From a virus (lineage: Duplodnaviria > Heunggongvirae > Uroviricota > Caudoviricetes), in the IMG/VR virus record IMGVR_UViG_2585427789_000019: a DNA stretch of 23,165 bases. The stretch is one strand, 5' to 3'. The stretch's first letter is position 1. Each line of letters opens with the position of its first letter. Shown one piece after another: positions 4,770-23,165 of this stretch. The notes beneath the pieces are model-generated. The model made no database searches and was not told the origin of the DNA. It was given only the letters and a program-made list of their open reading frames with translations. Position numbers and translations under genes: made by a program.

Positions 4770-4950
4770 AATGTCTTTATTTTTTATGTATTCTTTTGTG
4801 CTTTCAAGATTATGGCGTAAGAAAATTGCAATACGATTATTGTTGTATATTCAAGATAATGTGACCTTAATTGTCTTTTTAAATAAAAATTAAACAAAAA
4901 TTATATCCCACCACTAAGGTTTATAAAAGCATACGTTAGCAGGTGTCACC

Positions 4951-6477
4951 ATGAAAAAAGCCATAGCATATATGCGATTTTCATCACCAGGTCAGATGTC
5001 TGGCGACTCATTAAACCGACAGAGAAGACTTATTGCTGAATGATTAAAGGTAAATAGTGATTATTATCTTGATACCATAACATATGAAGATTTAGGATTA
5101 AGTGCATTCAAAGGAAAGCATGCACAATCAGGAGCTTTTTCGGAATTTTTAGATGCTATAGAGCATGGTTATATATTGCCAGGAACTACATTGTTAGTTG
5201 AAAGTCTGGACAGACTTTCAAGAGAAAAAGTCGGTGAAGCGATTGAACGTCTGAAATTGATTTTGAATCACAGTATTGATGTTATAACTCTTTGCGACAA
5301 TACAGTCTATAATATTGACTCTTTGAATGAGCCATATTCATTAATAAAAGCCATACTTATAGCACAAAGGGCAAATGAAGAAAGCGAGATAAAGTCAAGT
5401 CGGGTTAAATTATCATGGAAGAAAAAACGGCAGGATGCACTGGAATCAGGTACGATTATGACGGCGTCTTGTCCGAGATGGCTCTCCTTAGATGACAAAA
5501 GAACGGCTTTTGTTCCAGACCCCGACAGGGTGAAAACTATTGAGCTAATTTTTAAACTCAGGATGGAAAGGCGCTCATTGAATGCAATAGCCAAGTATTT
5601 AAATGATCATGCTGTAAAGAATTTCTCAGGAAAAGAAAGTGCATGGGGACCTTCTGTAATTGAAAAATTATTAGCGAATAAAGCTCTGATAGGTATATGC
5701 GTACCTTCATATCGTGCAAGAGGGAAAGGGATAAGTGAAATCGCTGGCTATTATCCCAGAGTCATATCAGATGATTTGTTTTACGCTGTACAGGAAATTC
5801 GGTTGGCACCTTTTGGTATTAGCAATAGTAGCAAGAATCCTATGCTAATAAATCTACTTCGAACAGTTATGAAGTGTGAGGCTTGTGGTAATACCATGAT
5901 TGTTCATGCGGTATCTGGAAGTTTGCATGGCTATTATGTTTGTCCGATGAGAAGATTACATCGATGTGACAGGCCATCAATAAAAAGAGATTTGGTTGAT
6001 TATAATATCATTAATGAATTGCTTTTTAATTGTAGCAAAATTCAACCAGTTGAAAACAAGAAAGATGCTAATGAAACTTTAGAGTTAAAAATTATTGAGC
6101 TTCAGATGAAAATTAATAATTTAATCGTTGCATTGTCTGTCGCGCCTGAAGTTACCGCTATAGCAGAGAAAATAAGACTATTAGATAAGGAATTACGAAG
6201 GGCTTCGGTATCATTGAAAACTTTGAAGAGTAAAGGTGTAAATTCATTCAGTGATTTTTATGCTATTGACTTAACCAGTAAAAATGGACGAGAGTTATGC
6301 CGTACACTTGCCTATAAAACATTCGAAAAAATCATAATTAATACGGATAATAAAACCTGTGATATCTATTTTATGAATGGCATTGTTTTTAAACACTATC
6401 CTTTAATGAAAGTAATATCCGCCCAGCAGGCGATAAGTGCTCTCAAATATATGGTTGATGGTGAGATTTATTTCTAA
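4951..6477 (+). pseudogene. ybcK: Serine recombinase YbcK-like, interrupted by an in-frame TGA at codon 31 (5041..5043)
   Basis: ATG at 4951 with aggtg Shine-Dalgarno gives MKKAIAYMRFSSPGQMSGDSLNRQRRLIAE, then TGA, then the same frame continues LKVNSDYYLDTITYEDLGLSAFKGKHAQSGAFSEFLDAIEHGYILPGTTLLVESLDRLSREK... to 6477 (508 codons if read through). The N-terminal piece carries the resolvase-type catalytic serine motif (YMRFSS..Q). Confidence 0.75.
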
Positions 6478-6858
6478 ATAATGATCTCGGATTTTAAGTT
6501 ATGCTATGGTGATAAAGTGCAAGACAGAATTAATTATCTTTGACGAAACTTAATGGGTAATTACTTTGTTTGCTCCCACAAGCGAGTTTTGTACGGCTGT
6601 ATTGGGGTAGTAAATGAGCTATACAATCTTAATCATTTGTTAGGTGAGAACTCTTGGTCGCAGATTCAAATACTGAAAATACGTGACAAATTATTATGAG
6701 CAAAATGGTGTATGTCACGTATTTTGAATGGTAGGTTAAAAAATAACACCGACTTTCGTAGGTATTACTAATAATAAAGCAGAGTTTTTAGATAGTATCA
6801 ATGTGCTTTGTGTATATTGTGGCAAATAATTGGGTTGGGGGTACAATTGTGATTGCTT

Positions 6859-6888
6859 TTGCATGAACATTGCGCCTTTATGCATAAT
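6859..6888 (+). promoter_or_regulatory. Candidate sigma70 promoter for ybcL
   Basis: TTGCAT (6859..6864), 18-bp spacer, CATAAT (6883..6888) preceded by TG, about 55 bp upstream of the ybcL ATG; pattern match only. Confidence 0.3.
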
Positions 6889-6941
6889 GAGATAAAGGAA
6901 TATCAAATAAAATAACGATAGGTCATAACAAAGAGGTTTTT

Positions 6942-7493
6942 ATGAAAACACTTATCGTTTCAACTGTATTGGCATTCATAACATTTTCTGCGCAGGCTGC
7001 AGCATTTCAGGTCACTAGTAATGAAATAAAAACAGGAGAGCAACTTACAACGTCTCATGTCTTTTCTGGATTTGGGTGTGAAGGTGGTAATACATCGCCC
7101 TCATTAACCTGGTCTGGTGTTCCTGAAGGTACCAAAAGCTTTGCCGTAACTGTATATGATCCAGATGCACCTACAGGCAGTGGTTGGTGGCATTGGACTG
7201 TTGTTAATATTCCAGCAACAGTAACATATTTGCCCGTTGATGCAGGGAGACGTGATGGAACAAAACTGCCGACTGGTGCTGTTCAAGGCCGAAATGATTT
7301 TGGCTATGCTGGGTTTGGTGGCGCATGTCCTCCTAAAGGAGATAAACCACATCATTACCAGTTTAAAGTATGGGCTCTAAAAACTGAAAAGATTCCTGTA
7401 GATTCTAACTCCAGCGGAGCGTTAGTTGGTTATATGCTTAATGCTAATAAAATCGCAACCGCTGAGATAACACCAGTTTATGAGATAAAGTAG
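6942..7493 (+). CDS. ybcL: Secreted PEBP/RKIP-family (UPF0098) protein YbcL
   Basis: 183 aa with an N-terminal signal peptide (MKTLIVSTVLAFITFSAQA) and PEBP-like motifs (DPDAP, HHY); aagagg Shine-Dalgarno before the ATG at 6942. Confidence 0.9.
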   Translation: MKTLIVSTVLAFITFSAQAAAFQVTSNEIKTGEQLTTSHVFSGFGCEGGNTSPSLTWSGVPEGTKSFAVTVYDPDAPTGSGWWHWTVVNIPATVTYLPVDAGRRDGTKLPTGAVQGRNDFGYAGFGGACPPKGDKPHHYQFKVWALKTEKIPVDSNSSGALVGYMLNANKIATAEITPVYEIK

Positions 7494-7502
7494 GGTGAGA
7501 GT

Positions 7503-8300
7503 ATGCTGGCAAGAGGTAAGACTAACTTAAAGATCGAAGAAATACGGATGCATAAACATCATGAGATTCATAGGGTTAAGCCTCTTATGCCAGCTTTGTG
7601 TCGTATCCGTCAGGGAAAGAAAGTTATCAATTGGGAGACGCATACTTTAACTGTTGATAATAATCAAATAATATTATTTCCTTGTGGTTATGAATTTTAT
7701 ATTGAGAATTATCCTGAAGCAGGGCTTTATCTTGCAGAAATGCTTTACTTACCCATTGATTTAATTGAGAGTTTCCAAAAACTTTATACGGTAACTGATC
7801 AAATACGTAACAAAACAAGTTTCTTTTTACCTCAGAATCCTGAGTTAATATATTGTTGGGAGCAACTAAAAACATCTGTTTCCCGAGGCTTCTCAACTAA
7901 AATTCAGGAGCACTTAGCAATGGGCGTTCTACTTTCGTTAGGAGTGAATCATGTTAATCATTTACTTTTATCATATAGTAAACAATCATTGATAAGTCGT
8001 TGTTATAACCTGCTGCTATCCGAACCCGGCACAAAATGGACAGCAAACAAGGTTGCTCGATATCTCTACATTTCTGTTTCTACATTACATCGCCGTCTAG
8101 CAAGCGAGGGGGTAAGTTTCCAAAGTATACTGGACGATGTGAGGTTAAATAATGCGTTGTCTGCTATACAAACGACGGTAAAACCTATAAGCGAGATTGC
8201 CAGAGAAAATGGTTATAAGTGTCCTTCTCGTTTTACTGAAAGATTTCATAATCGTTTTAATATAACACCAAGAGAGATAAGAAAAGCTTCCAGAGAGTAA
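7503..8300 (+). CDS. ybcM: AraC/XylS-family transcriptional regulator YbcM
   Basis: 265 aa with a C-terminal AraC-type HTH ([45 protein letters not shown]...[31 protein letters not shown]). Confidence 0.85.
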
Positions 8301-8416
8301 AAGTGTTTTAAGAAGGAGCAATTCTATCGATTTTGATTTTGGGAAATCAACACGGCATAATTATGTCACCGGAGCCTGAACAACTCCGGTGACTTCTGCG
8401 CTAAACGGGGACGTTT

Positions 8417-8518
8417 ATGCGCACATACAATCCAAACTCTCTTCTCCCTTCACAGATGCAGAAATGCACCTGCAATTCTTTGCATCTAGCGTTTGACCTC
8501 TGCGGAGGTGAAGCGTGA
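8417..8518 (+). CDS. ylcH: Small nin-region protein YlcH (33 aa)
   Basis: ATG at 8417; [33 protein letters not shown]; stop overlaps the ybcN GTG start. Recognised from DLP12 gene order as I recall it. Confidence 0.55.
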
Positions 8519-8970
8519 ACCTCTCACAAGACGGCATCAAATTACATCGCGGCAACTTCACCGCTATCGGTCGGCAGATCCAGCCTTATCTGGAGGAGGG
8601 CAAATGCTTTCGCATGGTGCTTAAACCGTGGCGTGAGAAACGCAGTCTTTCCCAGAATGCACTCAGCCACATGTGGTACAGCGAAATCAGTGAATACCTC
8701 ATCAGCAGGGGTAAAACGTTCGCCACTCCAGCTTGGGTAAAAGATGCTCTCAAACACACATATCTCGGTTATGAAACCAAAGACCTGGTTGATGTCGTAA
8801 CCGGTGATATCACCACTATCCAGTCGTTACGCCATACCTCCGACCTTGATACCGGAGAGATGTATGTCTTCCTGTGTAAGGTTGAAGCCTGGGCGATGAA
8901 TATTGGCTGCCACCTGACTATTCCGCAGAGCTGCGAGTTCCAGCTGCTGCGTGATAAGCAGGAGGCGTAA
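8515..8970 (+). CDS. ybcN: YbcN (nin-region protein, reported DNA base-flipping activity)
   Basis: 151 aa from the GTG at 8515 ([61 protein letters not shown]...), in the expected position before ninE. Confidence 0.8.
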
Positions 8971-9140
8971 TGGCTACACCGCTTATTCGTGTCATGAACG
9001 GACACATCTACAAAGTACCAAATCGTCGTAAGCGTAAGCCTGAGCTGAAACCATCCGAAATACCAACACTGCTCGGATATACCGCCAGCCTGGTTGATAA
9101 AAAATGGTTGCGACTGGCAGCAAGGAGGAATCATGGCTGA
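8970..9140 (+). CDS. ninE: NinE
   Basis: 56 aa, [56 protein letters not shown]; ATG overlaps the ybcN stop. Confidence 0.85.
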   Translation: MATPLIRVMNGHIYKVPNRRKRKPELKPSEIPTLLGYTASLVDKKWLRLAARRNHG

Positions 9141-9423
9141 TTTGAGAAAAGCAGCGCGTGGTCGGGAATGCCAGGTAAGAATCCCTGGCGTATGTAATGG
9201 CAATCCTGAAACGTCTGTACTGGCACATATCCGGCTGGCTGGATTGTGCGGTACCGGTATCAAACCGCCAGACCTGATTGCCACCATTGCATGTTCTGCC
9301 TGTCACGACGAGATCGACCGTCGCACGCATTTTGTTGACGCTGGATATGCAAAAGAATGCGCGCTGGAAGGTATGGCGAGAACGCAGGTTATCTGGCTGA
9401 AAGAGGGGGTAATTAAGGCGTGA
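9133..9423 (+). CDS. ybcO: YbcO (nin-region putative nuclease, Cys/His-rich)
   Basis: 96 aa from the ATG at 9133 with ggagg Shine-Dalgarno: [67 protein letters not shown]... Confidence 0.8.
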
Positions 9424-9782
9424 ATACCTACAATATCACATTACCCTGGCCGCCGAGCAATAATCGCTATTACCGCCATAATCGCGGGCGCACGCACATC
9501 AGCGCAGAGGGGCAGGCATACCGCGAAAACGTCGCCCGAATCATTAAAAACGCAATGCTGGATATCGGCCTGGCTATGCCTGTGAAAATCCGCATTGAGT
9601 GTCACATGCCGGATCGCCGTCGCCGTGACCTGGATAATCTACAAAAGGCCGCTTTTGACGCACTCACCAAAGCAGGTTTCTGGCTGGATGATGCTCAGGT
9701 CGTTGATTACCGCGTTGTGAAGATGCCGGTTGTCAAAGGTGGAAAGCTGGAACTGACCATCACTGAACAGGGAGATGAATGA
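9420..9782 (+). CDS. rusA: Holliday-junction resolvase RusA
   Basis: 120 aa from the GTG at 9420 ([97 protein letters not shown]...) with RusA catalytic Asp residues. Confidence 0.9.
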
Positions 9783-9919
9783 TGTTTGAGTTTTATATGG
9801 CAGAACTTCTTCGCCACCGCTGGATGCGCCTGCGCTTATATCGTTTCCCCGGTTCTGTTTTGACCGATTACCGAATACTGAAGAATTACGCCAAAACACT
9901 GACAGGAGCAGGAGTATGA
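9779..9919 (+). CDS. ylcG: Small nin-region protein YlcG (46 aa)
   Basis: [46 protein letters not shown]; ATG overlaps the rusA stop. Confidence 0.55.
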
Positions 9920-10004
9920 AGTCAGAGATAACAATCAACTAATACTGTTTTGTTGATTTTTGCTTGTAATTGGCGTTCTGGTCTGAGTTTTGTGGAGTAA
10001 GTTG

Positions 10005-10388
10005 ATGCGTGATATTCAGATGGTTCTTGAGCGTTGGGGAGCGTGGGCGGCTAATAATCATGAAGATGTGACCTGGTCGTCCATTGCCGCCGGTTTTAAG
10101 GGATTAATTCCTTCAAAAGTAAAATCTCGCCCACAATGTTGTGACGATGACGCGATGATCATTTGCGGGTGCATGGCCCGTCTGAAAAAGAACAACAGCG
10201 ATTTGCATGATTTATTAGTAGATTATTATGTAGTCGGTATGACATTCATGTCACTGGCAGGTAAGCATTGCTGCTCTGATGGTTATATCGGGAAAAGGTT
10301 ACAGAAGGCTGAGGGCATAATTGAAGGGATGTTAATGGCATTAGATATCCGGTTAGAGATGGATATCGTTGTTAATAACTCTAATTAA
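10005..10388 (+). CDS. quuD: Q-like late-gene antiterminator
   Basis: 127 aa from the ATG at 10005 (ggag Shine-Dalgarno at 9994): [62 protein letters not shown]..., Cys-rich zinc-binding region typical of Q proteins, positioned after the nin region. Confidence 0.85.
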
Positions 10389-10421
10389 TATGCCAATTGT
10401 TTACTAAAAATTATTAAAAAT

Positions 10422-10450
10422 GGGGCGTTGAGACGCCCCCAAAAATAAAG
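10422..10450 (-). terminator. Intrinsic terminator for the minus strand (likely nmpC)
   Basis: Perfect 7-bp GC stem ggggcgt/acgcccc (10422..10439, loop tgag); on the minus strand it is followed by AUUUUUAAUAAUUUUU. Confidence 0.55.
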
Positions 10451-10527
10451 GGTAATATATAACAGAAGGTTTATATAGTTAGAAGCAAGGTTGTGCTTCT
10501 AAAGGAAGTGGCTTGAGGGAGCCACTT

Positions 10528-10567
10528 ATATGTTGGGGAGGCAAAGCCTCCCGCAACATATCTTTTT
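10528..10567 (+). terminator. Intrinsic terminator for the plus strand (candidate tR'-like terminator downstream of quuD)
   Basis: Long hairpin atatgttggggaggc-aaa-gcctcccgcaacatat (10528..10561) followed by cttttt. Confidence 0.55.
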
Positions 10568-10577
10568 CGTAATCAGA

Positions 10578-11660
10578 TTAGAACTGATACACCAGACCTA
10601 CAGCGACGATGTCGTCGGTATCAATACCAGCTGTTTTGGTAAACTTACTATCGTCAATTAAGTTGATTTTGTAATCAACAAAAGTGGACATGTTTTTATT
10701 AAAGTAGTAAGTAGCACCGACATCGACATACTTGACTAAGTCTCGGTCACCATGAACACCAAGGTCTTTACCTTTTGACTGAAGGTAAGCAACAGATGGT
10801 CGCAGACCGAAGTCAAACTGATATTGTGCTACTGCTTCAAAGTTTTGTGCTTTGTTTGCAATATGGTTATTACCAAAAACGGTCATATTCTGAGTTTCAG
10901 AATATGTGGTAGCCAGATAGATATTGTTCGCATCATATTTCAGGCCTGCAGCCCATACTTCCGCATTTTTGCCGGAGGCATTGAATTTGCTCTTACCATA
11001 GGCGACCTGACCGTCAGTGCGATCTGATTTAGCATAGGTTGCACCCACGCCGAATCCTTCATACTCATAAGTAGTGGAGAAACCGAAACCATCACCATTG
11101 GCTTCAGTTACGTCAGTGCGGTCATTTTTACCCTGATACTGAGCAGCAAAGTTCAGGCCATCGACCAGACCAAAGAAGTCGTTGTTACGATAGGTTGCAA
11201 CACCAGTGGTGCGACCAGTCATGAACACATCTGTTTGGGTCCAGGTATCGCCACCGAATTCTGGCAGAACGTCAGTCCACGCACCGATGTCGTATGCTAC
11301 ACCGTAGTTACGGCCGTAATCGATTGAGCCGTAGTCACCGAATTTCAGGCCTGCAAATGCAAGACGGGTTTTGTCTTTGGAGGAACCTTGAGATTCAGCG
11401 CGGTTGCCTTTGAATTCATATTCCCACTGACCGAAACCAGTCAGTTGATCGTTGATTTGGGTTTCACCTTTGAAGCCAAGACGGGCATAAGTAGTATCAC
11501 CATCATCTGCATCGTTAGAGGAAAAGTAGTGCTTGGCATTAACTTTCCCGTACAGATCCAGCTTGTTACTGTCTTTATTATAAATTTCAGCTGCCTGAGC
11601 AGACATCGCCATCAGTACTGATGCAGCTACAGCAGAAATTGCCACTGTTAATTTTTTCAT
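10578..11660 (-). CDS. nmpC: OmpC/OmpF-family outer-membrane porin (NmpC-type), apparently intact
   Basis: 360 aa with signal peptide ([23 protein letters not shown]), porin beta-strand pattern and C-terminal ...VGLVYQF; uninterrupted reading frame. Confidence 0.9.
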
Positions 11661-14464: not shown

Positions 14465-14690
14465 TTTGCGGGTCCTTTCCGGCGATCCGACAGGTTACGG
14501 GGCGGCGACCTCGCGGGTTTTCGCTATTTATGAAAATTTTCCGGTTTAAGGCATTTCCGTTCTTCTTCGTCGTAACTTAATGTTTTTATTTAAAATACCC
14601 CCTGAAAAGAAAGGAAACGACAGGTGCTGAAAACGAGCTTTTGGGCCTCTGTCGTTTCCTTTCTCTGTTTTTGGCCGTGGAATGAACAAT
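14465..14690. other. Lambda-type cohesive end site (cosQ-cosN-cosB)
   Basis: cgatccgacaggttacg followed by GGGCGGCGACCT (cosN, 14499..14510) and cgcgggttttcgctatttatgaaaattttccggtttaagg..., near-identical to the lambda right-end/left-end junction as I recall it, running into the Nu1 start. Confidence 0.75.
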
Positions 14691-15264
14691 GGAAGTCAAC
14701 AAAAAGCAGCTGGCTGACATTTTCGGTGCGAGTATCCGTACCATTCAGAACTGGCAGGAACAGGGAATGCCCGTTCTGCGAGGCGGTGGCAAGGGTAATG
14801 AGGTGCTTTATGACTCTGCCGCCGTTATAAGATGGTATGCCGAAAGGGATGCTGAAATTGAGAACGAAAAGCTGCGCCGGGAAGTTGAAGAACTGCGGCA
14901 GGCCAGCGAGACAGATCTCCAGCCAGGGACTATTGAGTACGAACGCCATCGACTTACGCGTGCGCAGGCCGACGCACAGGAGCTGAAAAATGCCAGAGAC
15001 TCCGCTGAAGTGGTGGAAACCGCATTCTGTACTTTCGTGCTGTCGCGGATCGCAGGTGAAATTGCCAGTATTCTCGACGGGATCCCCCTGTCGGTGCAGC
15101 GGCGTTTTCCGGAACTGGAAAACCGACATGTTGATTTCCTGAAACGGGATATCATCAAAGCCATGAACAAAGCAGCCGCGCTGGATGAACTGATACCCGA
15201 ACACGGCACTGGTCGGCGTGCAGGTGGACTCGGAGCAGTTCGGCAGCCAGCAGGTGAGCCGTAA
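14689..15264 (+). CDS. nohD: Terminase small subunit (Nu1 homologue) with a non-native C-terminal tail from a deletion junction
   Basis: [71 protein letters not shown]... matches lambda Nu1 through ...[14 protein letters not shown], then diverges ([21 protein letters not shown]) as the frame runs into J-derived DNA. Confidence 0.8.
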
Positions 15265-18040
15265 TTATCATCTTCGCGGGCGCATTCTGCAGGTGCCGTC
15301 GAACTATAACCCGCAGACGCGGCAATACAGCGGTATCTGGGACGGAACGTTTAAGCCGGCATACAGCAACAACCCGGCCTGGTGTCTGTGGGATATGCTG
15401 ACCCACCCGCGCTACGGCATGGGGAAACGTCTTGGTGCGGCGGATGTGGATAAATGGGCGCTGTATGTCATCGGCCAGTACTGCGACCAGTCAGTGCCGG
15501 ACGGTTTTGGCGGCACGGAGCCGCGCATCACCTGTAATGCCTACCTGACCACGCAGCGTAAGGCGTGGGATGTGCTCAGTGATTTCTGCTCGGCGATGCG
15601 CTGTATGCCGGTATGGAACGGGCAGACGCTGACGTTCGTGCAGGACCGACCATCAGATAAGGTGTGGACCTATAACCGCAGTAATGTGGTGATGCCGGAT
15701 GATGGCGCGCCGTTCCGCTACAGCTTCAGCGCCCTGAAGGACCGCCATAATGCCGTTGAGGTGAACTGGATTGACCCGAATAACGGCTGGGAGACGGCGA
15801 CAGAGCTTGTTGAAGATACGCAGGCCATTCTCCGTTACGGTCGTAACGTCACGAAGATGGATGCCTTTGGCTGTACCAGCCGGGGGCAGGCACACCGCGC
15901 CGGGCTGTGGCTGATTAAAACGGAGCTGCTGGAAACGCAGACCGTGGACTTCAGCGTGGGTGCCGAAGGGCTTCGCCATGTACCGGGCGATGTCATTGAA
16001 ATCTGCGATGATGACTATGCCGGTATCCGCACCGGCGGGCGCGTGCTGGCGGTAAACAGCCAGACCCGGACGCTGACGCTCGACCGTGAAATCACGCTGC
16101 CATCTTCCGGCACCACGCTGATAAGCCTGGTTGACGGGCAGGGGAGTCCGGTCAGCGTGGAGGTTCAGTCCGTCACCGACGGCGTGAAGGTGAAAGTGAG
16201 CCGTGTTCCTGACGGCGTTGCTGAATACAGCGTATGGGGGCTGAAGCTGCCGACGTTGCGCCAGCGCCTGTTCCGCTGCGTGAGTATCCGTGAGAACGAC
16301 GACGGCACGTATGCCATCACCGCCGTGCAGCATGTACCGGAAAAAGAGGCCATCGTGGATAACGGGGCGCACTTTGACGGCGACCAGAGCGGCACGGTAA
16401 ATGGTGTCACGCCGCCAGCGGTGCAGCACCTGACCGCAGAAGTCACCGCAGACAGCGGGGAATACCAGGTGCTGGCCCGCTGGGATACGCCGAAGGTGGT
16501 GAAGGGCGTGAGCTTCCTGCTTCGCCTGACCGTGGCAGCGGATGACGGCCGTGAGCGACTGGTCAGCACGGCCCGGACGACGGAAACCACTTACCGCTTC
16601 ACACAACTGGCTCTGGGGAACTACAGGCTGACAGTCCGGGCAGTAAATGCGTGGGGGCAGCAGGGCGAGCCGGCGTCGGTATCGTTCCGGATTGCCGCAC
16701 CGGCAGCGCCGTCGCAGATTGAGCTGACACCGGGGTATTTTCAGATAACCGCCACGCCGCATCTTGCGGTTTATGATCCGACGGTACAGTTTGAGTTCTG
16801 GTTCTCGGAAAAGCGGATTGCGGATATCAGGCAGGTTGAAACCACAGCACGCTATCTTGGCACGGCGCTGTACTGGATAGCCGCCAGTATCAATATCAAA
16901 CCGGGCCATGATTATTATTTTTACATCCGCAGTGTGAACACCGTTGGCAAATCGGCATTCGTGGAGGCTGTTGGCCAGCCGAGTGATGATGCATCCGGCT
17001 ATCTGAATTTTTTCAAAGGAGAGATAGGGAAAACCCATCTGGCTCAGGAGTTGTGGACGCAGATTGATAACGGTCAGCTTGCGCCTGACCTGGCGGAAAT
17101 CAGAACGTCCATCACGGATGTCAGTAATGAAATCACGCAGACCGTCAATAAGAAACTGGAAGACCAGAGTGCGGCAATCCAGCAGATACAGAAGGTTCAG
17201 GTTGATACAAATAATAACCTGAACAGCATGTGGGCTGTGAAGCTGCAGCAGATGCAGGACGGACGCCTTTATATCGCGGGTATTGGTGCCGGTATTGAGA
17301 ATACCCCTGACGGTATGCAGAGTCAGGTGCTGCTGGCGGCGGACAGGATTGCGATGATTAATCCTGCGAATGGCAACACAAAGCCGATGTTTGTTGGTCA
17401 GGGCGATCAGATATTCATGAACGAAGTGTTCCTGAAATATCTGACGGCTCCCACCATTACCAGCGGCGGTAATCCTCCGGCATTTTCCCTGACACCGGAC
17501 GGGCGGCTGACGGCGAAAAATGCCGATATTAGCGGTAACGTGAATGCGAACTCCGGGACGCTCAACAACGTCACGATTAACGAGAACTGCCGGGTTCTGG
17601 GAAAACTGTCCGCGAACCAGATTGAAGGCGATCTCGTTAAAACAGTGGGCAAAGCTTTCCCCCGGGACTCCCGTGCACCGGAGCGGTGGCCATCAGGGAC
17701 CATTACCGTCAGGGTTTATGACGATCAGCCGTTTGACCGGCAAATTGTTATTCCGGCGGTGGCATTCAGTGGCGCTAAACATGAGCAAGATCATACTGAT
17801 ATCTACTCCTCATGCCGTCTGATAGTACGAAAAAACGGTGCTGAAATTTATAACCGAACGGCTCTGGATAATACGCTGATATATACGGGTGTTATTGATA
17901 TGCCTGCAGGCAGTGGTGTAATGACACTGGAATTTTCTGTATCGGCATGGCTGGTAAATGGCTGGTATCCCACAGCAAGTATCAGCGATTTGCTGGTTGT
18001 GGTGATGAAGAAAGCCACTGCAGGCATCATGATTAGCTGA
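15218..18040 (+). CDS. J: Tail-tip host-specificity protein J, N-terminally truncated fragment (about 940 codons); probably a non-functional remnant
   Basis: ...[108 protein letters not shown]... matches internal lambda J sequence as I recall it; no native N-terminus or Shine-Dalgarno, and the frame opens at the nohD junction. Confidence 0.85.
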
Positions 18041-18059
18041 ATTTTATAACCCAGATACG

Positions 18060-18084
18060 GGCGCCAGAAATGGCGCCTTTTTTA
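18060..18084 (+). terminator. Intrinsic terminator after J
   Basis: Stem ggcgcca/tggcgcc with loop gaaa (18060..18077) followed by tttttt. Confidence 0.6.
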
Positions 18085-18098
18085 TTTGTGGAGTGAAT

Positions 18099-20444
18099 AT
18101 GGCAGTACAGATTTCAGGTGTGCTGAAAGATGGTGCGGGAAAACCAATACAGAACTGCACTATTCAACTGAAGGCAAAGCGTAACAGCACCACGGTACTG
18201 GTGAACACGGTGGCCTCTGAAAATCCGGATGAAGCCGGGCGTTACAGCATGGATGTTGAGCATGGCCAGTACAGCGTCACCCTGCTGGTTGAAGGTTTTC
18301 CGCCTTCACATGCCGGAACCATTACCGTCTATGAAGGTTCCAGACCAGGTACGCTGAATGATTTTCTCGGTGCCATGACGGAAGATGATGTCATGCCGGA
18401 GGCATTGCGTCGTTTTGAGGCAATGGTGGAAGAAGCGGCACGCAACGCCGAAGCCGCCTCTCAGAGCGCAGCGGCGGCAAAGAAATCCGAAACTGCAGCG
18501 GCATCATCGAAGAACGCGGCGAAAACCTCAGAAACGAATGCAGCTAACAGCGCACAGGCGGCAGCGTCCTCGCAGACTGCATCGGCAAACTCCGCGACAG
18601 CAGCCAAAAAATCAGAAACCAACGCGAAAAACAGCGAGACAGCCGCAAAGACGAGCGAAACCAACGCAAAGTCCAGCCAGACGGCAGCGAAAACCAGCGA
18701 AACGAATGCCAAAGCCAGTGAAACTGCGGCGAAAAATAGCCAGAATGCAGCAGCCGAAAGCGAGAGCGCGGCAGCCGGTTCTGCGACTGCAGCAGCTGGA
18801 TCAGCAACTGCTGCGGCTAACAGCCAGAAAGCAGCGAAGACGAGCGAAACTAACGCAAAGTCCAGCCAGACGGCAGCGAAGACCAGCGAAACAAATGCCA
18901 AAGCCAGCGAAACTGCGGCGAAAAGCAGTCAGGATGCAGCAGCCGAAAGCGAGAGTGCTGCAGCTGGTTCTGCAAGTGCGGCGGCTGCTTCTGCCACTGC
19001 ATCAGCAAACAGTCAAAAAGCTGCAAAAACCAGTGAAACCAATGCAAAGACAAGCGAGACTGCAGCGGCGAACTCGGCGCAAGCATCGGCAGCAAGCCAG
19101 ACAGCAGCTAAAGCAAGTGAGGATGCAGCCAGAGAGTATGCAAGCCAGGCAGCAGAGCCGTATAAATATGTCTTACAGCCACTGCCTGATGTGTGGATAC
19201 CGTTTAACGATTCACTGGATATGCTTGCTGGCTTTTCGCCTGGTTATAAGCAAATAACCGTAGGTGATGATGTTATTAAAATGCCATCCGATAAGGTTGT
19301 TAGCTTCAAACGCGCATCAGGTGCAACATACATTAATAAATCAGGTGTATTAACCGTTGCTGAAGTTGACGAACCGCGATTTGAACGAGAAGGTTTGCTG
19401 ATTGAAGGACAGAGAACAAACTATTTCAGAAATTCAAATACACCAGAAGCATGGAATAACACGGGTAGTGTGTCTGTTGAGTCGTTCGACAGTGATAAGG
19501 GGTTTAACTATGGAAGGATAACTGTTATTAATGAAAATCCGACAGCACAAGGATATCAGGCAATTGCTGTAAACACGAATGATGCTTACACCTGCCCGGC
19601 AGGTTCTTATACGACGATATCGTGTCTGACGAAAAGTGATAATTCCCGGTGTCGTGCAAGGTTCGGAAAAATGTCTGATAATGGTGCGTTTGTTTTTCAT
19701 TCAGATGCAGTTCTGGATCCTGTTACGGGAAATGTTGTTCATGGAAATAATGTGACGGTGACGGCAGAAAGAGTCGGTGAATGGTGGTTGTTTACCGCCA
19801 CTCTTTTTGCAGATGCGGAAATGATAATCAGCTCAAGATTTGAAATCCTGGCGATGCCTGGAATCAGTATTATCCCCAATGGCTCTACGTTAGATATTGC
19901 GATGCCTCAGGCGGAGATTGGGTCGTACAGGACGTCATTTATCATTACTGAAGGGGCTCCTGGCACTCGCTCCAGCGACATGGTGACAATACCTGTAAGA
20001 AACAATATTCACCGATTACCATTCAGTGCTCTTGTTGAAGTTAATAAAAACTGGGATATCCCTCCCAGCAAATCACCATTAATCTTTAATGTTAAAGATT
20101 ATCAGGAAAATGGTCTGTTCACGCATGGATTCCGTGGTAATAATTTCTCTGATGCCGGTTCTCCTTTTATTTCTATGGGAGGGTGTAATAAATATGTGGC
20201 AACAACCCAGAGGAAAATCATTTCAGGCTTCCGTTGTGGCGCTGATGGAGATGTTCAGGCCGTATGTAATGGTGAATTATCTGTTGCGGCAAAAACAACA
20301 TGGACTTCAATTGTTCCACGGGCAGTATTGCGAATTGGAGGGCAGGGCACTAATGGGGAGTATCATCTTTTTGGTCATATCCGTAATCTGCGTATCTGGC
20401 ATAAAGAATTAACTGATGCGCAAATGGGGGAGAGTATTAAATGA
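18099..20444 (+). CDS. stf: Side tail fibre protein (lambda Stf-like N-terminus, Ala/Ser-rich repeat shaft, non-lambda C-terminal domain)
   Basis: ATG at 18099 with ggag Shine-Dalgarno; MAVQISGVLKDGAGKPIQNCTIQLKAKRNSTTVLVNTVASENPDEAGRYSMDVEHGQYSVTLLVEGFPPSHAGTITVYEGSRPGTLNDFLGAMTEDD... matches the Stf N-terminus; followed by AAKTSETNAK-type repeats. Confidence 0.85.
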   Translation: MAVQISGVLKDGAGKPIQNCTIQLKAKRNSTTVLVNTVASENPDEAGRYSMDVEHGQYSVTLLVEGFPPSHAGTITVYEGSRPGTLNDFLGAMTEDDVMPEALRRFEAMVEEAARNAEAASQSAAAAKKSETAAASSKNAAKTSETNAANSAQAAASSQTASANSATAAKKSETNAKNSETAAKTSETNAKSSQTAAKTSETNAKASETAAKNSQNAAAESESAAAGSATAAAGSATAAANSQKAAKTSETNAKSSQTAAKTSETNAKASETAAKSSQDAAAESESAAAGSASAAAASATASANSQKAAKTSETNAKTSETAAANSAQASAASQTAAKASEDAAREYASQAAEPYKYVLQPLPDVWIPFNDSLDMLAGFSPGYKQITVGDDVIKMPSDKVVSFKRASGATYINKSGVLTVAEVDEPRFEREGLLIEGQRTNYFRNSNTPEAWNNTGSVSVESFDSDKGFNYGRITVINENPTAQGYQAIAVNTNDAYTCPAGSYTTISCLTKSDNSRCRARFGKMSDNGAFVFHSDAVLDPVTGNVVHGNNVTVTAERVGEWWLFTATLFADAEMIISSRFEILAMPGISIIPNGSTLDIAMPQAEIGSYRTSFIITEGAPGTRSSDMVTIPVRNNIHRLPFSALVEVNKNWDIPPSKSPLIFNVKDYQENGLFTHGFRGNNFSDAGSPFISMGGCNKYVATTQRKIISGFRCGADGDVQAVCNGELSVAAKTTWTSIVPRAVLRIGGQGTNGEYHLFGHIRNLRIWHKELTDAQMGESIK
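18648..19026 (+). repeat. Imperfect 189-bp tandem duplication (63 codons x 2) inside stf, itself built from 21-bp Ala/Ser/Thr-rich sub-repeats
   Basis: Units beginning aagacgagcgaaac at 18648 and 18837 are near-identical for the first 120 bp or so (KTSETNAKSSQTAAKTSETNAKASETAAK.S...AAAESESAAAGSA...). Confidence 0.8.
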
Positions 20445-20722
20445 AAGATTTAACACTCAAATTTGCAGACAGGGCCGACTTTTCGGCCTTTATGGAGAGT
20501 ATTGGCTATTATGATGACGAGTCGATGCAGGATGATATTCTTATTGACGTGATAGGTAACGTGTACAAAGAAACCGGAGAACTGACTGAAGATGGCGAAC
20601 CGGTATGTGTTAAGGAAGACGGATATTTTGTAAACGTGCGCATCATTAATGATGTAAAAAAATCGTCAATATTCGATAAATACGCGGTTGTTGTTGAGCA
20701 TCAACTTCGTGGCTGGATGTGA
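20441..20722 (+). CDS. Hypothetical acidic protein (93 aa), translationally coupled to stf
   Basis: ATG at 20441 overlaps the stf stop (ATGA); MKDLTLKFADRADFSAFMESIGYYDDESMQDDILIDVIGNVYKETGELTEDGEPVCVKEDGYFVNV...; no family recognised. Confidence 0.5.
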   Translation: MKDLTLKFADRADFSAFMESIGYYDDESMQDDILIDVIGNVYKETGELTEDGEPVCVKEDGYFVNVRIINDVKKSSIFDKYAVVVEHQLRGWM

Positions 20723-20731
20723 GGGAGACAA

Positions 20732-21436
20732 ATGGCTACATCGACAGTAATTCCAGGAGATATCACCACGCTAAAGGGAGATGTCAGTAAAACTAAGGAA
20801 GATATTTCCTCAATTAACGGAAAAGTATCAACGCTTCAGACTGATATGACCAGTGCAAAGCAGGATATCAGCACCAGATACACAAAAACTGAAGTTGATA
20901 ATAAGCTGAAAAACAAACTGGAAGTGAACGATCTGGAAAGCGGTCGTTATGGTGGAGATTTTTACCCGTTGACTGGCCGTGAAGCGTTTTATATGTGGGG
21001 ATTGGGCACGACTACAGCGGCGGCAAACCTTTATCTTAATCCTGACCCTGCAATTTCGTCTGTACTGCGGTCAACATCGTCTATTCGCTATAAACATTCA
21101 GTAGAGACGATAGATTCAGAGCACGCCGATCTCATTTTCAGGATGCGCCCTGTGTGGTACAGGTCGCAATGCGAAAATGACAGGCGTGACTGGGGATTCT
21201 ACGGATTGATTGCCGAGGAAGTAGGAGAAATTGCCCCTCAGTTTGTACACTGGCGACCAGCTAACGAAGATGATGCTCCTGAAGCTATTTCCAGCAATGG
21301 CCTTGTTGCCGAAGGTGTAATGTACGAACGTCTGGTTGTTCCACTGATTCACCATATCCAGAAGCTGACTGAAAGAGTTGATGAACTTGAGTCAGAATTA
21401 AAGTTGTTATCCGTTTCCCGAAGCGATATCGGATAA
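20732..21436 (+). CDS. Short tail-fibre-like protein with a C-terminal intramolecular-chaperone (peptidase S74-like) domain
   Basis: ATG at 20732 with gagggag Shine-Dalgarno; C-terminus ...SSIRYKHSVETIDSEHADLIFRMRPVWYRSQ...WGFYGLIAEEVGEIAPQFV...GVMYERLVVPLIHHIQKLTERVDELESELK resembles the autoproteolytic chaperone domain of endosialidase and L-shaped tail fibres; N-terminus looks like a coiled coil. Confidence 0.55.
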   Translation: MATSTVIPGDITTLKGDVSKTKEDISSINGKVSTLQTDMTSAKQDISTRYTKTEVDNKLKNKLEVNDLESGRYGGDFYPLTGREAFYMWGLGTTTAAANLYLNPDPAISSVLRSTSSIRYKHSVETIDSEHADLIFRMRPVWYRSQCENDRRDWGFYGLIAEEVGEIAPQFVHWRPANEDDAPEAISSNGLVAEGVMYERLVVPLIHHIQKLTERVDELESELKLLSVSRSDIG

Positions 21437-21446
21437 AGGAGGAGTA

Positions 21447-21740
21447 ATGGATATAACACCTTTCCTTCATGCGCTTTGTGCTGTGGCTGCGCAGCTACTG
21501 ATTGGTCTTTTTACCGGGAACTGGGCTTACGGGGCGATAGCCGGTTGTACGTTCTTCATTGCGCGTGAACACACCCAGGCAGAATATCGCTGGATCGAAA
21601 TGTTCGGGCATGGCAAGCGAATGAATATGCCGTGGTGGGGCGGTTTTGATACACGTGCATGGGATGTGGCAAGCCTGATGGATTTTGCTGTGCCGGTGGT
21701 GGCGTGTCTGCTGGTCTGGCTGTTGGTTAATCGTGGGTGA
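21447..21740 (+). CDS. Hypothetical small membrane protein (97 aa)
   Basis: Strong aaggagg Shine-Dalgarno before the ATG at 21447; two or three hydrophobic segments (LHALCAVAAQLLIGLF, AYGAIAGCTFFIA, FAVPVVACLLVWLLV). Confidence 0.5.
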   Translation: MDITPFLHALCAVAAQLLIGLFTGNWAYGAIAGCTFFIAREHTQAEYRWIEMFGHGKRMNMPWWGGFDTRAWDVASLMDFAVPVVACLLVWLLVNRG

Positions 21741-22415
21741 AAAAAGGTGAGCTGTATATGCAACGGAGGAAGAAAACTCGTTGCTGGAAGCCTGGAAAAA
21801 GTATCGGGTGCTGCTAAACCGTGTGGACACTTCCGTAGCACCAGATATCGAGTGGCTTATTCAACCATAATAAACAGTATGTATATCATAGGTTATTAAT
21901 TGTGAGTTTTTTCGGTGTGTTATTTGTTTGTTTGATGTTATGCTTTTGCGCCCCAAAAGGTTGTTTAGATGTATTTTATCAATTGATTTTCAATGTCGTT
22001 TAATAAAGAAAAATTAAGCAAGCTGGATGTTGGTTTTTTGTTAATTGAATGGTTCTAATAATGTTTTTTTACTGTTGTTGAATGTGACTTGATAAGAAAT
22101 GCAAGTAAAAATGATACTCTTTTTATTTTAAATTCAAACGGTTGACATATATATAGCAAGAGGTTTCAGGTGCGTTGTAGTGAGTTTATGTTAATAAAAA
22201 GTATAGTAAGCGTTGAAAAATGTAACTTTGAAATACGTTAGAATAAAAAACAATATACATATAATAATTTAATCTTAAATGAAATTTATTAAAATTTGCA
22301 AACTATAATTTTGTGTATAAAAATATAAATGCACATCATCCTGATTATGATTGTGTATTTAATTGGTTGTTATTTGACTGCTATCAACTTGTTTTAATTT
22401 TATGATAGGTGCAAG

Positions 22416-23165
22416 ATGGATTATGTTTGCTCCGTAGTTTTCATCTGTCAATCATTTGATTTAATTATAAACAGGAGAGTTATCTCGTTCAAAAAAAATT
22501 CATTGTTTATTGTAAGCGACAAAATTAGAAGGGAGTTACCAGTATGCCCCTCTAAACTAAGAATTGTTGATATAGATAAGAAAACATGTTTATCCTTTTT
22601 TATCGACGTGAATAATGAGTTGCCTGGCAAATTTACTCTTGATAAGAATGGCTATATTGCTGAAGAGGAACCTCCATTATCGCTTGTTTTTTCTCTGTTT
22701 GAAGGGATTAAAATAGCAGACTCACACTCCCTTTGGTTAAAAGAAAGACTATGTATATCCTTACTTGCCATGTTCAAAAAACGCGAAAGTGTAAATTCAT
22801 TTATACTAACAAATATAAATACATTTACCTGTAAAATTACTGGAATAATCAGTTTTAATATTGAGCGGCAATGGCATTTAAAAGATATTGCGGAATTGAT
22901 TTATACGAGTGAAAGTTTAATAAAAAAAAGATTAAGGGATGAAGGAACGTCATTTACTGAAATATTGAGAGATACTAGGATGAGGTATGCAAAAAAACTC
23001 ATAACTTCAAACTCTTATTCTATCAATGTCGTAGCCCAGAAATGTGGCTATAACAGTACTTCATATTTCATATGTGCATTTAAAGATTATTATGGTGTCA
23101 CGCCATCTCATTATTTTGAGAAAATAATCGGCGTCACAGATGGAATAAACAAAACAATTGACTGA
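22416..23165 (+). CDS. appY: AraC-family transcriptional activator AppY
   Basis: 249 aa, [56 protein letters not shown]... with C-terminal AraC-type HTH ([37 protein letters not shown]...[27 protein letters not shown]); stop is at the window end. Confidence 0.9.

Follow-up and report, generated by a model that had tools for sequence, protein, structure and literature searches.

What do three intact genes encode at the end of an otherwise decayed prophage, and do they belong together? The question is raised by the 23,165-nucleotide virus record IMGVR_UViG_2585427789_000019 (Caudoviricetes), hereafter the window, in which a block of three genes on the + strand, here called orfA, orfB, and orfC (positions 20441-21740), lies between the side tail fiber gene stf and appY. 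An initial annotation made from the sequence alone had considered this trio not assignable to any described system and had proposed a receptor-blocking or superinfection-exclusion function or an alternative fiber tip. In our judgment the block is probably a composite, in which stf, orfA, and orfB make up a two-piece side tail fiber and orfC is a separately mobile gene that accompanies them.

The three genes were found on the + strand with the sizes that the initial annotation had read, 93, 234, and 97 amino acids. The ATG of orfA (20441-20443) overlaps the TGA of stf (20442-20444) as ATGA and has GGGGGAGAG upstream, orfB has GGGAG 4 nucleotides 5' of its ATG, and orfC is preceded by AAGGAGGAG, 2 nucleotides 5' of the ATG, with an AGGAGG core 5 nucleotides 5'. 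The other features read at that stage also stand, namely the acidity of the orfA product (pI 4.31), the coiled-coil-like N terminus and C-terminal chaperone domain of the orfB product, and the membrane nature and strong ribosome-binding site of orfC. These are real genes and not chance open reading frames, because all three are annotated by PGAP in Escherichia coli B REL606 (orfA and orfC as 'hypothetical', orfB as 'tail fiber domain-containing'), match PHROG families at the E-values given in Table 1, and show low ratios of nonsynonymous to synonymous substitution (dN/dS). Against functional phages the ratio was 0.07-0.28 in six of seven comparisons; the exception, orfA against Tritos (0.83), comes from 13 substitutions.

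Going by sequence and gene order, stf-orfA-orfB is the same two-piece lateral fiber locus that is found in Drexlerviridae, Dhillonvirus, Nonagvirus, and T5-like phages. This part of the block can be assigned to a described system after all, and among the earlier candidates an alternative fiber tip fits orfB. A distal fiber gene lies directly 3' of the proximal one in PhiR49_1, Tritos, PeterMerian, swan01, JenP1, KarlBarth, IrisVonRoten, and mar004NP2. In the inducible lambdoid phage PhiR49_1 the block 20441-21740 is 94.5% identical and stands in the order J-lom-stf-orfA-orfB-orfC, and IdasGreatGrand shows 94.8% identity over 98% of the 1.3-kb query. About 40 virulent Drexlerviridae, such as swan01 and PeterMerian (Bas05, with orthologs of 92 amino acids for orfA and 231 for orfB), carry the lateral fiber gene, orfA, and orfB and lack orfC. 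Tritos, 2G7b, and HannyBb keep orfA and orfC and have the orfB body replaced by an unrelated 346-amino-acid protein, and phage 21, ev243, 4A7, and the phage-plasmid PhiR41_1 have the order stf-orfA-orfC without orfB. Such partial combinations occur in live phages, and therefore the three genes are not an obligate unit. The locus type is already known in outline: lateral fiber loci of two or more proteins were described in the BASEL papers, and in the BASEL-2 paper IrisVonRoten Gp24 was modeled as a T-shaped fiber carrying both a T5-like binding domain and an intramolecular chaperone; AlphaFold-Multimer attaches Gp24 to the proximal fiber Gp22, whose C terminus carries a galectin-like domain.

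The proximal fiber, Stf, begins with a lambda-type N-terminal attachment domain (PF08400, residues 3-133, E 6e-67), to which a shaft of Ala-rich repeats and about 420 C-terminal amino acids are joined, and it matches PHROG 1419 over its full length and the NCBIfam family GTA_spike_fiber over residues 436-627. At its C-terminal end stands the motif HLFGHxRNxRIWHKxLTD, which is conserved irrespective of the fiber N terminus, and the last 214 amino acids have less than 60% identity to all 205 matching phage records. The shaft (about 18400-19150 of the window; residues about 110-350) is built of long, imperfect Ala/Ser/Thr-rich repeats (AAKTSETNAKSSQTAAKTSETNAKASETAAK...), which give long spurious open reading frames on both strands.

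The position and distribution of orfA indicate that it belongs to the fiber. We inspected ten fiber loci from lambdoid, Drexlerviridae, Dhillonvirus, Nonagvirus, T5-like, and rV5-like phages, virulent ones included. In all ten an orfA homolog overlaps or abuts the fiber stop codon, and the C-terminal region of about 420 amino acids of the window Stf is common to every fiber that precedes it. Among phage records, 205 carry the Stf C terminus and 183 carry orfA, with the same taxon profile. The initial annotation had allowed that the 93-amino-acid protein might fall into a known tail fiber assembly family, which was not borne out: by sequence it does not belong with Tfa, gpU, and gp38 (PF02413, Caudo_TAP, or NCBIfam equivalents), as it matched nothing in Pfam at E<=1 and nothing in NCBIfam at E<=0.1. 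There was also no similar fold among solved fiber chaperones, and sequence comparison with the PDB gave chance matches only. The homologs spanned only 85-97% identity among the 120 matches listed, and the search was repeated with a profile of phage homologs in order to diversify the alignment used for modeling. In the BASEL and related literature found, the role of the 92-amino-acid protein of two-piece fiber loci is not addressed. The orfA protein keeps about 90% identity in comparisons that leave the Stf cassette only about 42%; being constant while the cassette varies, it is not a cassette-specific chaperone and would serve the conserved fiber end. It is most likely a fiber accessory, a candidate assembly factor (chaperone) or adaptor for that end. 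Its retention in phages without a distal fiber weakens a pure adaptor role.

Several database records under the names Campylobacter phage (about 59-138 kb) and Listeria phage (fragments of 1.6-1.8 kb) also carry E. coli-type fiber and orfA genes, either rV5-like or T5-like. These records look mislabeled or contaminated.

Judged by its domain order, the orfB product is the shortest known version of the distal fiber, with a conserved N-terminal segment followed by a heptad region, a tip of roughly 50 amino acids, and a Peptidase_S74 domain. The first 27-32 residues (MATSTVIPGDITTLKGD...) follow the pattern M[AV]T.T[VI]IP.DIT.LK, which is common to distal proteins with unrelated bodies, carried by Tritos (346 amino acids), JenP1 (351 amino acids), IrisVonRoten Gp24 (574 amino acids), and KarlBarth (98 amino acids). 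Identity in this segment is 63-66% over 27-32 amino acids to Tritos and JenP1 and 43% over 28 amino acids to Gp24, and beyond it orfB and these three are alike only in the S74 region. The same segment matches the N termini of PHROG 4563 and 19752, and it is kept where the orfB body is swapped. The heptad region weakly matches the coiled coil of P22 gp26 (E 0.005).

In the chaperone domain, residues 116-172 match positions 1-57 of the 58-position PF13884 profile with 27.1 bits, above the cutoff of 22. Within S116-S-I-R-Y-K121, the residues S116, S117, R119, Y120, and K121 are invariant in four aligned orthologs, and we take S116 and K121 to be equivalent to S911 and K916 of the endosialidase. 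The start of the domain aligns with TSGIEYK at the C terminus of DT57C LtfA (8hqz_d), and orfB matches the C termini of the long-fiber PHROGs 3299, 454, and 1699. By tblastn, at least 80% of orfB is covered in about 47 phage records. The functional phages PhiR49_1, PeterMerian, and swan01 have orthologs of 224-234 amino acids, and orfB is not the deletion leftover of an ordinary fiber that the initial annotation had considered as a possible outcome.

Identity profiles of the window against PhiR49_1 and against Tritos, taken in 100-nucleotide bins, carry the signature of two independently exchangeable, putatively receptor-binding cassettes, the Stf C terminus and the orfB body, lying between conserved linkers (Table 1). 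We read them as two swappable cassettes because the stretches of low identity are flanked by blocks of 85-100%.

In the composite that we propose, Stf would be the proximal fiber, and its C-terminal 400 or so amino acids would form a swappable receptor-binding cassette ending in the conserved motif. The orfA protein would be made by translational coupling with Stf and would act on the conserved fiber end. The N-terminal 30 residues of the orfB protein may dock on the end of Stf, for which the AlphaFold-Multimer model of the homologs Gp22 and Gp24 is the precedent. A coiled coil and a small T5-pb1-like tip would follow this docking segment. From what is known of its family, the S74 chaperone is expected to fold the orfB trimer and then to cut itself off at Ser116, which would give a mature subunit of about 115 amino acids. 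As for the orfC protein, we guess that it may act on a conserved host inner-membrane component, for example by blocking the DNA entry of superinfecting phages.

The gene orfC is, by its predicted neighbors, a separate mobile gene that is independent of orfA and orfB, because it is found after stf-orfA without orfB and also after a P22-like tailspike gene, tfa, a P2-type fiber gene, and J-like genes. In the P22-like phage Gally it follows the tailspike gene past a strong terminator and a 190-nucleotide AT-rich spacer, next to int, and promoter-like sites in this spacer are no more frequent than in shuffled sequence. In the Halomonas phage phiHAP-1 it lies between tfa and the sheath gene, at the place that fun(Z), a lysogenic-conversion gene, occupies in P2. 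Its start overlaps the end of a P2-type fiber gene in an Aeromonas prophage, and it stands after J-like genes in Comamonas and enterobacterial prophages. On a Salmonella contig of 160,376 bp, a homolog (5001-5297) lies between two pectate-lyase-type tailspike genes near baseplate-wedge genes. This contig may be a virulent phage, which bears on the choice between a lysogenic and a lytic role. The family thus ranges over phages of E. coli, Salmonella, Aeromonas, Comamonas, and Halomonas. Among 5,426 complete E. coli genomes, the orfA allele is present in 988 and the orfB allele in 746; orfC is present in 1,900 (35%), with a median of 2 copies and up to 7.

AlphaFold2 models the orfC protein with three helices (residues 4-23, 26-52, and 74-96). 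The loop REHTQAEYRWI...GKR.NMPWWGGFD is near-invariant in close members, and R40, E41, and W72 are invariant even in members that are only about 30-50% identical to orfC. The loop and the N terminus are probably in the cytoplasm by the positive-inside rule, because lysine and arginine are concentrated in the loop (5.3 per sequence, against 0-0.6 elsewhere). The family comprises 428 representative clusters, and the best 150 listed are all stand-alone proteins of 63-146 amino acids without informative fusions. A search of 48 diverse members against Pfam gave scattered chance matches (the PhoR N-terminal region in four and Phage_holin_8 in one), and the family profile had no match in the PDB. In PADLOC-DB 2.0 there was no match for orfA or orfC at E<=0.1, and orfB gave a chance-level CorA-like match (E 0.015).

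Table 1. Features of the stf-orfC region in window coordinates, with identity of the profiled segments to two functional phages
Feature	Positions	Strand	Remarks	Identity to PhiR49_1	Identity to Tritos
Truncated J gene (REL606 ECB_00512)	15194-18040				
Terminator-like hairpin between J remnant and stf	18059-18078	+	8-bp stem, 6 GC pairs, T run		
stf, proximal side tail fiber	18099-20444	+	781 amino acids from ATG; 783 from GTG at 18093		
Hypervariable cassette in stf, presumed first receptor-binding region	19200-20390 (about residues 370-766)	+			
orfA, acidic alpha/beta protein	20441-20722	+	93 amino acids; putatively coupled in translation to stf; PHROG 1361, E 2e-46		
orfB, predicted minimal distal fiber subunit	20732-21436	+	234 amino acids; PHROG 3299 (C terminus)/37852, E 2e-140; T5-type fiber PHROGs		
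orfB residues 1-32, conserved N-terminal segment	20732-20827	+	Presumed docking peptide onto Stf or orfA		
Peptidase_S74 intramolecular chaperone domain of orfB	21077-21433	+	Residues 116-234; predicted self-cleavage at Ser116		
orfC, three-helix inner-membrane protein	21447-21740	+	97 amino acids; PHROG 1443, E 3e-58; AlphaFold2 pLDDT 90.5		
tfa C-terminus remnant (pseudogene) between orfC and appY	21760-21870	+	PGAP 'tail fiber assembly protein, missing N-terminus'		
Profiled segment: stf, first part	18093-19190			85-99%	88-100%
Profiled segment: stf, second part	19200-20390			30-81%	43-74%
Profiled segment: last ~50 nucleotides of stf, orfA, first ~60-90 nucleotides of orfB				88-99%	85-97%
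Profiled segment: orfB body				93-100%	39-65%
Profiled segment: orfC				92-98%	95-100%

The alternative that survives best concerns the present host and not the phages: the three genes may be functionless in E. coli B and intact only through the recent decay of the prophage, to which we give nearly an even chance. Over positions 20000-22000, the window shows no difference (100% identity) from E. coli B REL606 (NC_012967, 556617-558617) or from many other, unrelated strains. In the REL606 annotation, the DLP12 prophage shows intD, regulatory and lysis genes, a terminase small-subunit gene that adjoins a truncated J ('phage tail tip protein' pseudogene), an intact stf, three coding sequences, and a tfa pseudogene fragment, followed by appY, ompT, and envY. 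The junction between the terminase gene and J marks the deletion of all head and most tail genes. Because the prophage is without them, there is no virion to carry a fiber, and the fiber genes cannot act in one in E. coli B. As PGAP features, the terminase small-subunit gene (about 14689-15264) and the truncated J (from 15194) overlap.

The initial annotation had taken the intact frames as a sign of selection for function. The frames are indeed intact, but selection in E. coli B does not follow: the intactness reflects recent origin and not demonstrated selection, because the sequence is identical across strains and close to that of a live phage, and the measured dN/dS reflects evolution in phages rather than in E. 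coli B. On the other side, orfC could still act in the cell by itself, and the neighboring J remnant was used by lambda via recombination, which would give the genes a reservoir value even if they are unexpressed. This J relic, ECB_00512, recombined with lambda J in coevolution with REL606, and phage fitness doubled (Borin et al., bioRxiv 10.1101/2020.11.02.365361). The decayed DLP12 prophage is therefore a documented donor of tail-gene DNA, and its fiber genes are a recently stranded copy able to donate DNA to lambdoid phages. A literature search under the locus tags returned only this recombination paper and nothing on orfA, orfB, or orfC.

Between the J remnant and stf lies a terminator-like hairpin (Table 1), phage 21 has an annotated terminator at the matching position, and given this hairpin the fiber genes may depend on antitermination. 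Downstream, the initial annotation had placed the trio where lambda carries tfa; a C-terminal fragment of tfa had been overlooked between orfC and appY, and the tfa position is thus held by this fragment and not missing. This remnant suggests that the stf-orfA-orfB-orfC block replaced an older stf-tfa pair by recombination. In the functional DLP12-like phages PhiR49_1 (7494-11325) and ev243 (4775-8276), the cargo 3' of orfC consists of a ybcY-like methyltransferase gene, a tfa fragment, an alpha/beta hydrolase gene, and ompT (compare window 21741-23165). The chromosomal arrangement of the DLP12 end, appY, ompT, and envY in K-12 and B may be the cargo end of such a phage.

The role of orfC was weighed from its settings. 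The 3' end of receptor-binding gene clusters is the classic slot for phage 'moron' genes, that is, add-on cargo, and the presence of orfC in such slots suggests a lysogen- or late-expressed envelope function. Our leading guess, which we hold tentatively, is that orfC excludes incoming phages at the inner membrane. Several observations speak against this guess: so extreme a conservation of the loop would be uncommon in an exclusion protein, virulent Aeromonas phages carry distant homologs in non-fiber contexts, and a scan of the + strand within 20441-21740 gave no promoter-like site and no enrichment over shuffled sequence.

A late lytic function of orfC, in lysis timing, egress, or protection of the producing cell and its progeny, deserves serious consideration, although it is somewhat less probable than exclusion. 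Such a function would agree with the position of orfC 10 nucleotides after orfB behind a strong ribosome-binding site, with no promoter-like site in the window, and with the overlap of its start with the late gene before it, as seen in phiHAP-1 and in the Aeromonas prophage, in which further tail genes come after orfC. The homolog between the two tailspike genes of the 160-kb Salmonella contig, further homologs in virulent Aeromonas jumbo phages, a Comamonas prophage in which orfC stands directly before likely holin, endolysin, and spanin genes, and the weak Phage_holin_8 match of 1 of 48 family members point the same way. However, in the P22-like phage the gene forms a unit of its own beside int, past the late-operon terminator and the AT-rich spacer, E. 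coli phages with orfC already have a lysis cassette elsewhere, the protein has 3 residues after its last helix and not the charged C-terminal tail typical of holins, and orfC is absent from virulent phages with the same fiber module. The Comamonas prophage (6300-8033) is the only context seen where orfC abuts a likely lysis cassette; four small genes follow orfC directly there, and their translations read as those of a probable holin, another membrane protein, a lysozyme-like protein, and a spanin of Rz-like type.

Particular relatives of orfC were considered and rejected. A Cor/Llp-type receptor-blocking lipoprotein is not indicated, as the N terminus MDITPFLHALCAV is without a basic n-region, Leu is at -1 to Cys11, and Cys11 is not conserved. 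A relationship to HK97 gp15 had a probability of 0.7% when the family alignment A2 was compared with gp15 by hhalign. A holin was rejected with essD, rrrD, and rzpD about 8 kb upstream and only NRG after the last helix. The P2 gene fun(Z) is a positional analogue only, and the Tai tail-assembly-interference systems are placed upstream of packaging genes and are unrelated.

A bolder view, doubtful but worth stating, is that orfC represents an unrecognized widespread family whose cytoplasmic loop (R40-E41, Q44, E46, and W72) would engage a conserved inner-membrane component and exclude phages or reprogram the envelope, and that orfA would be the universal partner of the galectin-type lateral fiber end in at least five lineages.

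For orfB, the alternative to a distal fiber is that, together with orfA, it replaces Tfa as a trans-acting folding factor of Stf, its S74 domain aiding the trimerization of Stf before being discarded. We consider this unlikely, although several findings favor it and weigh against a distal fiber. More than half of orfB is chaperone domain (the S74 domain and C-terminal helix take up 119 of the 234 residues), and the resident tfa is only a fragment. Orthologs of orfB are labeled 'putative lateral tail fiber chaperone' or 'chaperone of endosialidase' by the BASEL annotators and others. The shallow virion proteome of mar004NP2 contained the proximal fiber only, with neither the orfA homolog nor the distal fiber detected; this proteome and that of swan01 are too shallow to place either protein. 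On the other hand, phage 21, ev243, 4A7, and PhiR41_1 have the same kind of Stf with orfA and without an orfB-like gene, so that Stf needs no orfB. The N-terminal 30 amino acids of orfB are common to large fiber-like proteins of 346-574 amino acids, and its coiled coil varies by whole-heptad indels, as fiber shafts do (14-21 residues between lambdoid and Drexlerviridae orthologs). Finally, known S74 domains act in cis on the upstream polypeptide, which also counts against a folding factor.

That the three genes are one receptor-blocking or superinfection-exclusion system, a candidate of the initial annotation, and benefit the lysogen is very improbable. In its favor, the trio is contiguous (at least 80% coverage) in 723 of the E. 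coli genomes, which answers the earlier question of whether it travels together, the full trio is present in 97% of the genomes that have this orfB allele, purifying selection acts on all three genes, and orfC encodes a membrane protein in a moron hot spot. Against it, strictly virulent phages (Drexlerviridae, Nonagvirus, Dhillonvirus, T5-like, and rV5-like) have orfA and orfB but no orfC, and orfC occurs without orfA or orfB in P22-like and P2-like settings. Moreover, orfC keeps at least 92% identity between phages with fiber cassettes that are 35-45% identical and thus does not track receptor specificity, and the block has neither a PADLOC match nor a promoter-like site on its + strand.

With the composite reading, three 'hypothetical proteins' that occur in hundreds to thousands of E. 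coli genomes become parts that can be tested. Lambdoid side tail fibers gain a second swappable receptor-binding tip, and the frequent labeling of orfB as a mere 'chaperone' is corrected. The conserved linkers, formed by the 3' end of stf, by orfA, and by the 5' end of orfB, are possible natural splice points for the host-range engineering of lambda-based delivery particles; the Eligo preprint on lambda Stf engineering is silent on accessory genes. Tiny, extremely conserved, and among the commonest accessory genes of E. coli prophages, orfC is an attractive experimental target. The locus is also another case of a decayed prophage that stores tail-gene alleles for incoming phages.

Among known systems, orfC resembles the P2 fun(Z), P22 gtrABC, and HK97 gp15 morons in occupying the same kind of slot at receptor-binding genes, and, as with HK97 gp15, its product is small, sits in the inner membrane, and has its gene among tail genes. 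It differs from them in having no PADLOC match and, in lambdoid phages, no separate promoter-like site, and from fun(Z) in particular, which encodes 528 amino acids on the opposite strand. The place of orfA directly 3' of the fiber gene is that of lambda Tfa, Mu gpU, and T4 gp38 (PF02413).

The putative tip protein recalls the T5 pb1 L-shaped fiber tip and the K1F endosialidase (PF13884), which likewise have S-x4-K at the start of the S74 domain (S116/K121 in orfB) at the C-terminal end of a trimeric fiber. There, however, the S74 domain ends a polypeptide of more than 1,000 amino acids, whereas orfB has only about 115 amino acids upstream of the predicted cleavage site. In DT57C LtfA/LtfB (PDB 8HQZ), too, a second fiber protein attaches by a short conserved N terminus, both proteins have a C-terminal S74 domain, and orfB aligns to the C terminus and repeat region of LtfA. 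The DT57C system differs in that the N terminus of LtfB resembles phiEco32 gp15, the proximal protein has an S74 domain at its end instead of a galectin-like one, and descriptions of the system mention no orfA-like gene.

IrisVonRoten (Bas32) Gp22-Gp23-Gp24 and PeterMerian gp31-gp30-gp29 have the same gene order as the window, with a fiber gene, a gene for 92 amino acids over its stop codon, and a distal gene about 10 nucleotides further on. The fiber's C-terminal region is 42-43% identical over 536-750 amino acids and orfA is 38-47% identical, and their distal proteins share the N-terminal motif and likewise have an S74 intramolecular chaperone at the end. In the window, by contrast, the fiber is built on a lambda-type Stf N terminus (PF08400) in a temperate phage and the extra gene orfC follows, and compared with Gp24 the predicted distal protein is a minimal one of 234 amino acids, without the Gp12-like first binding domain.

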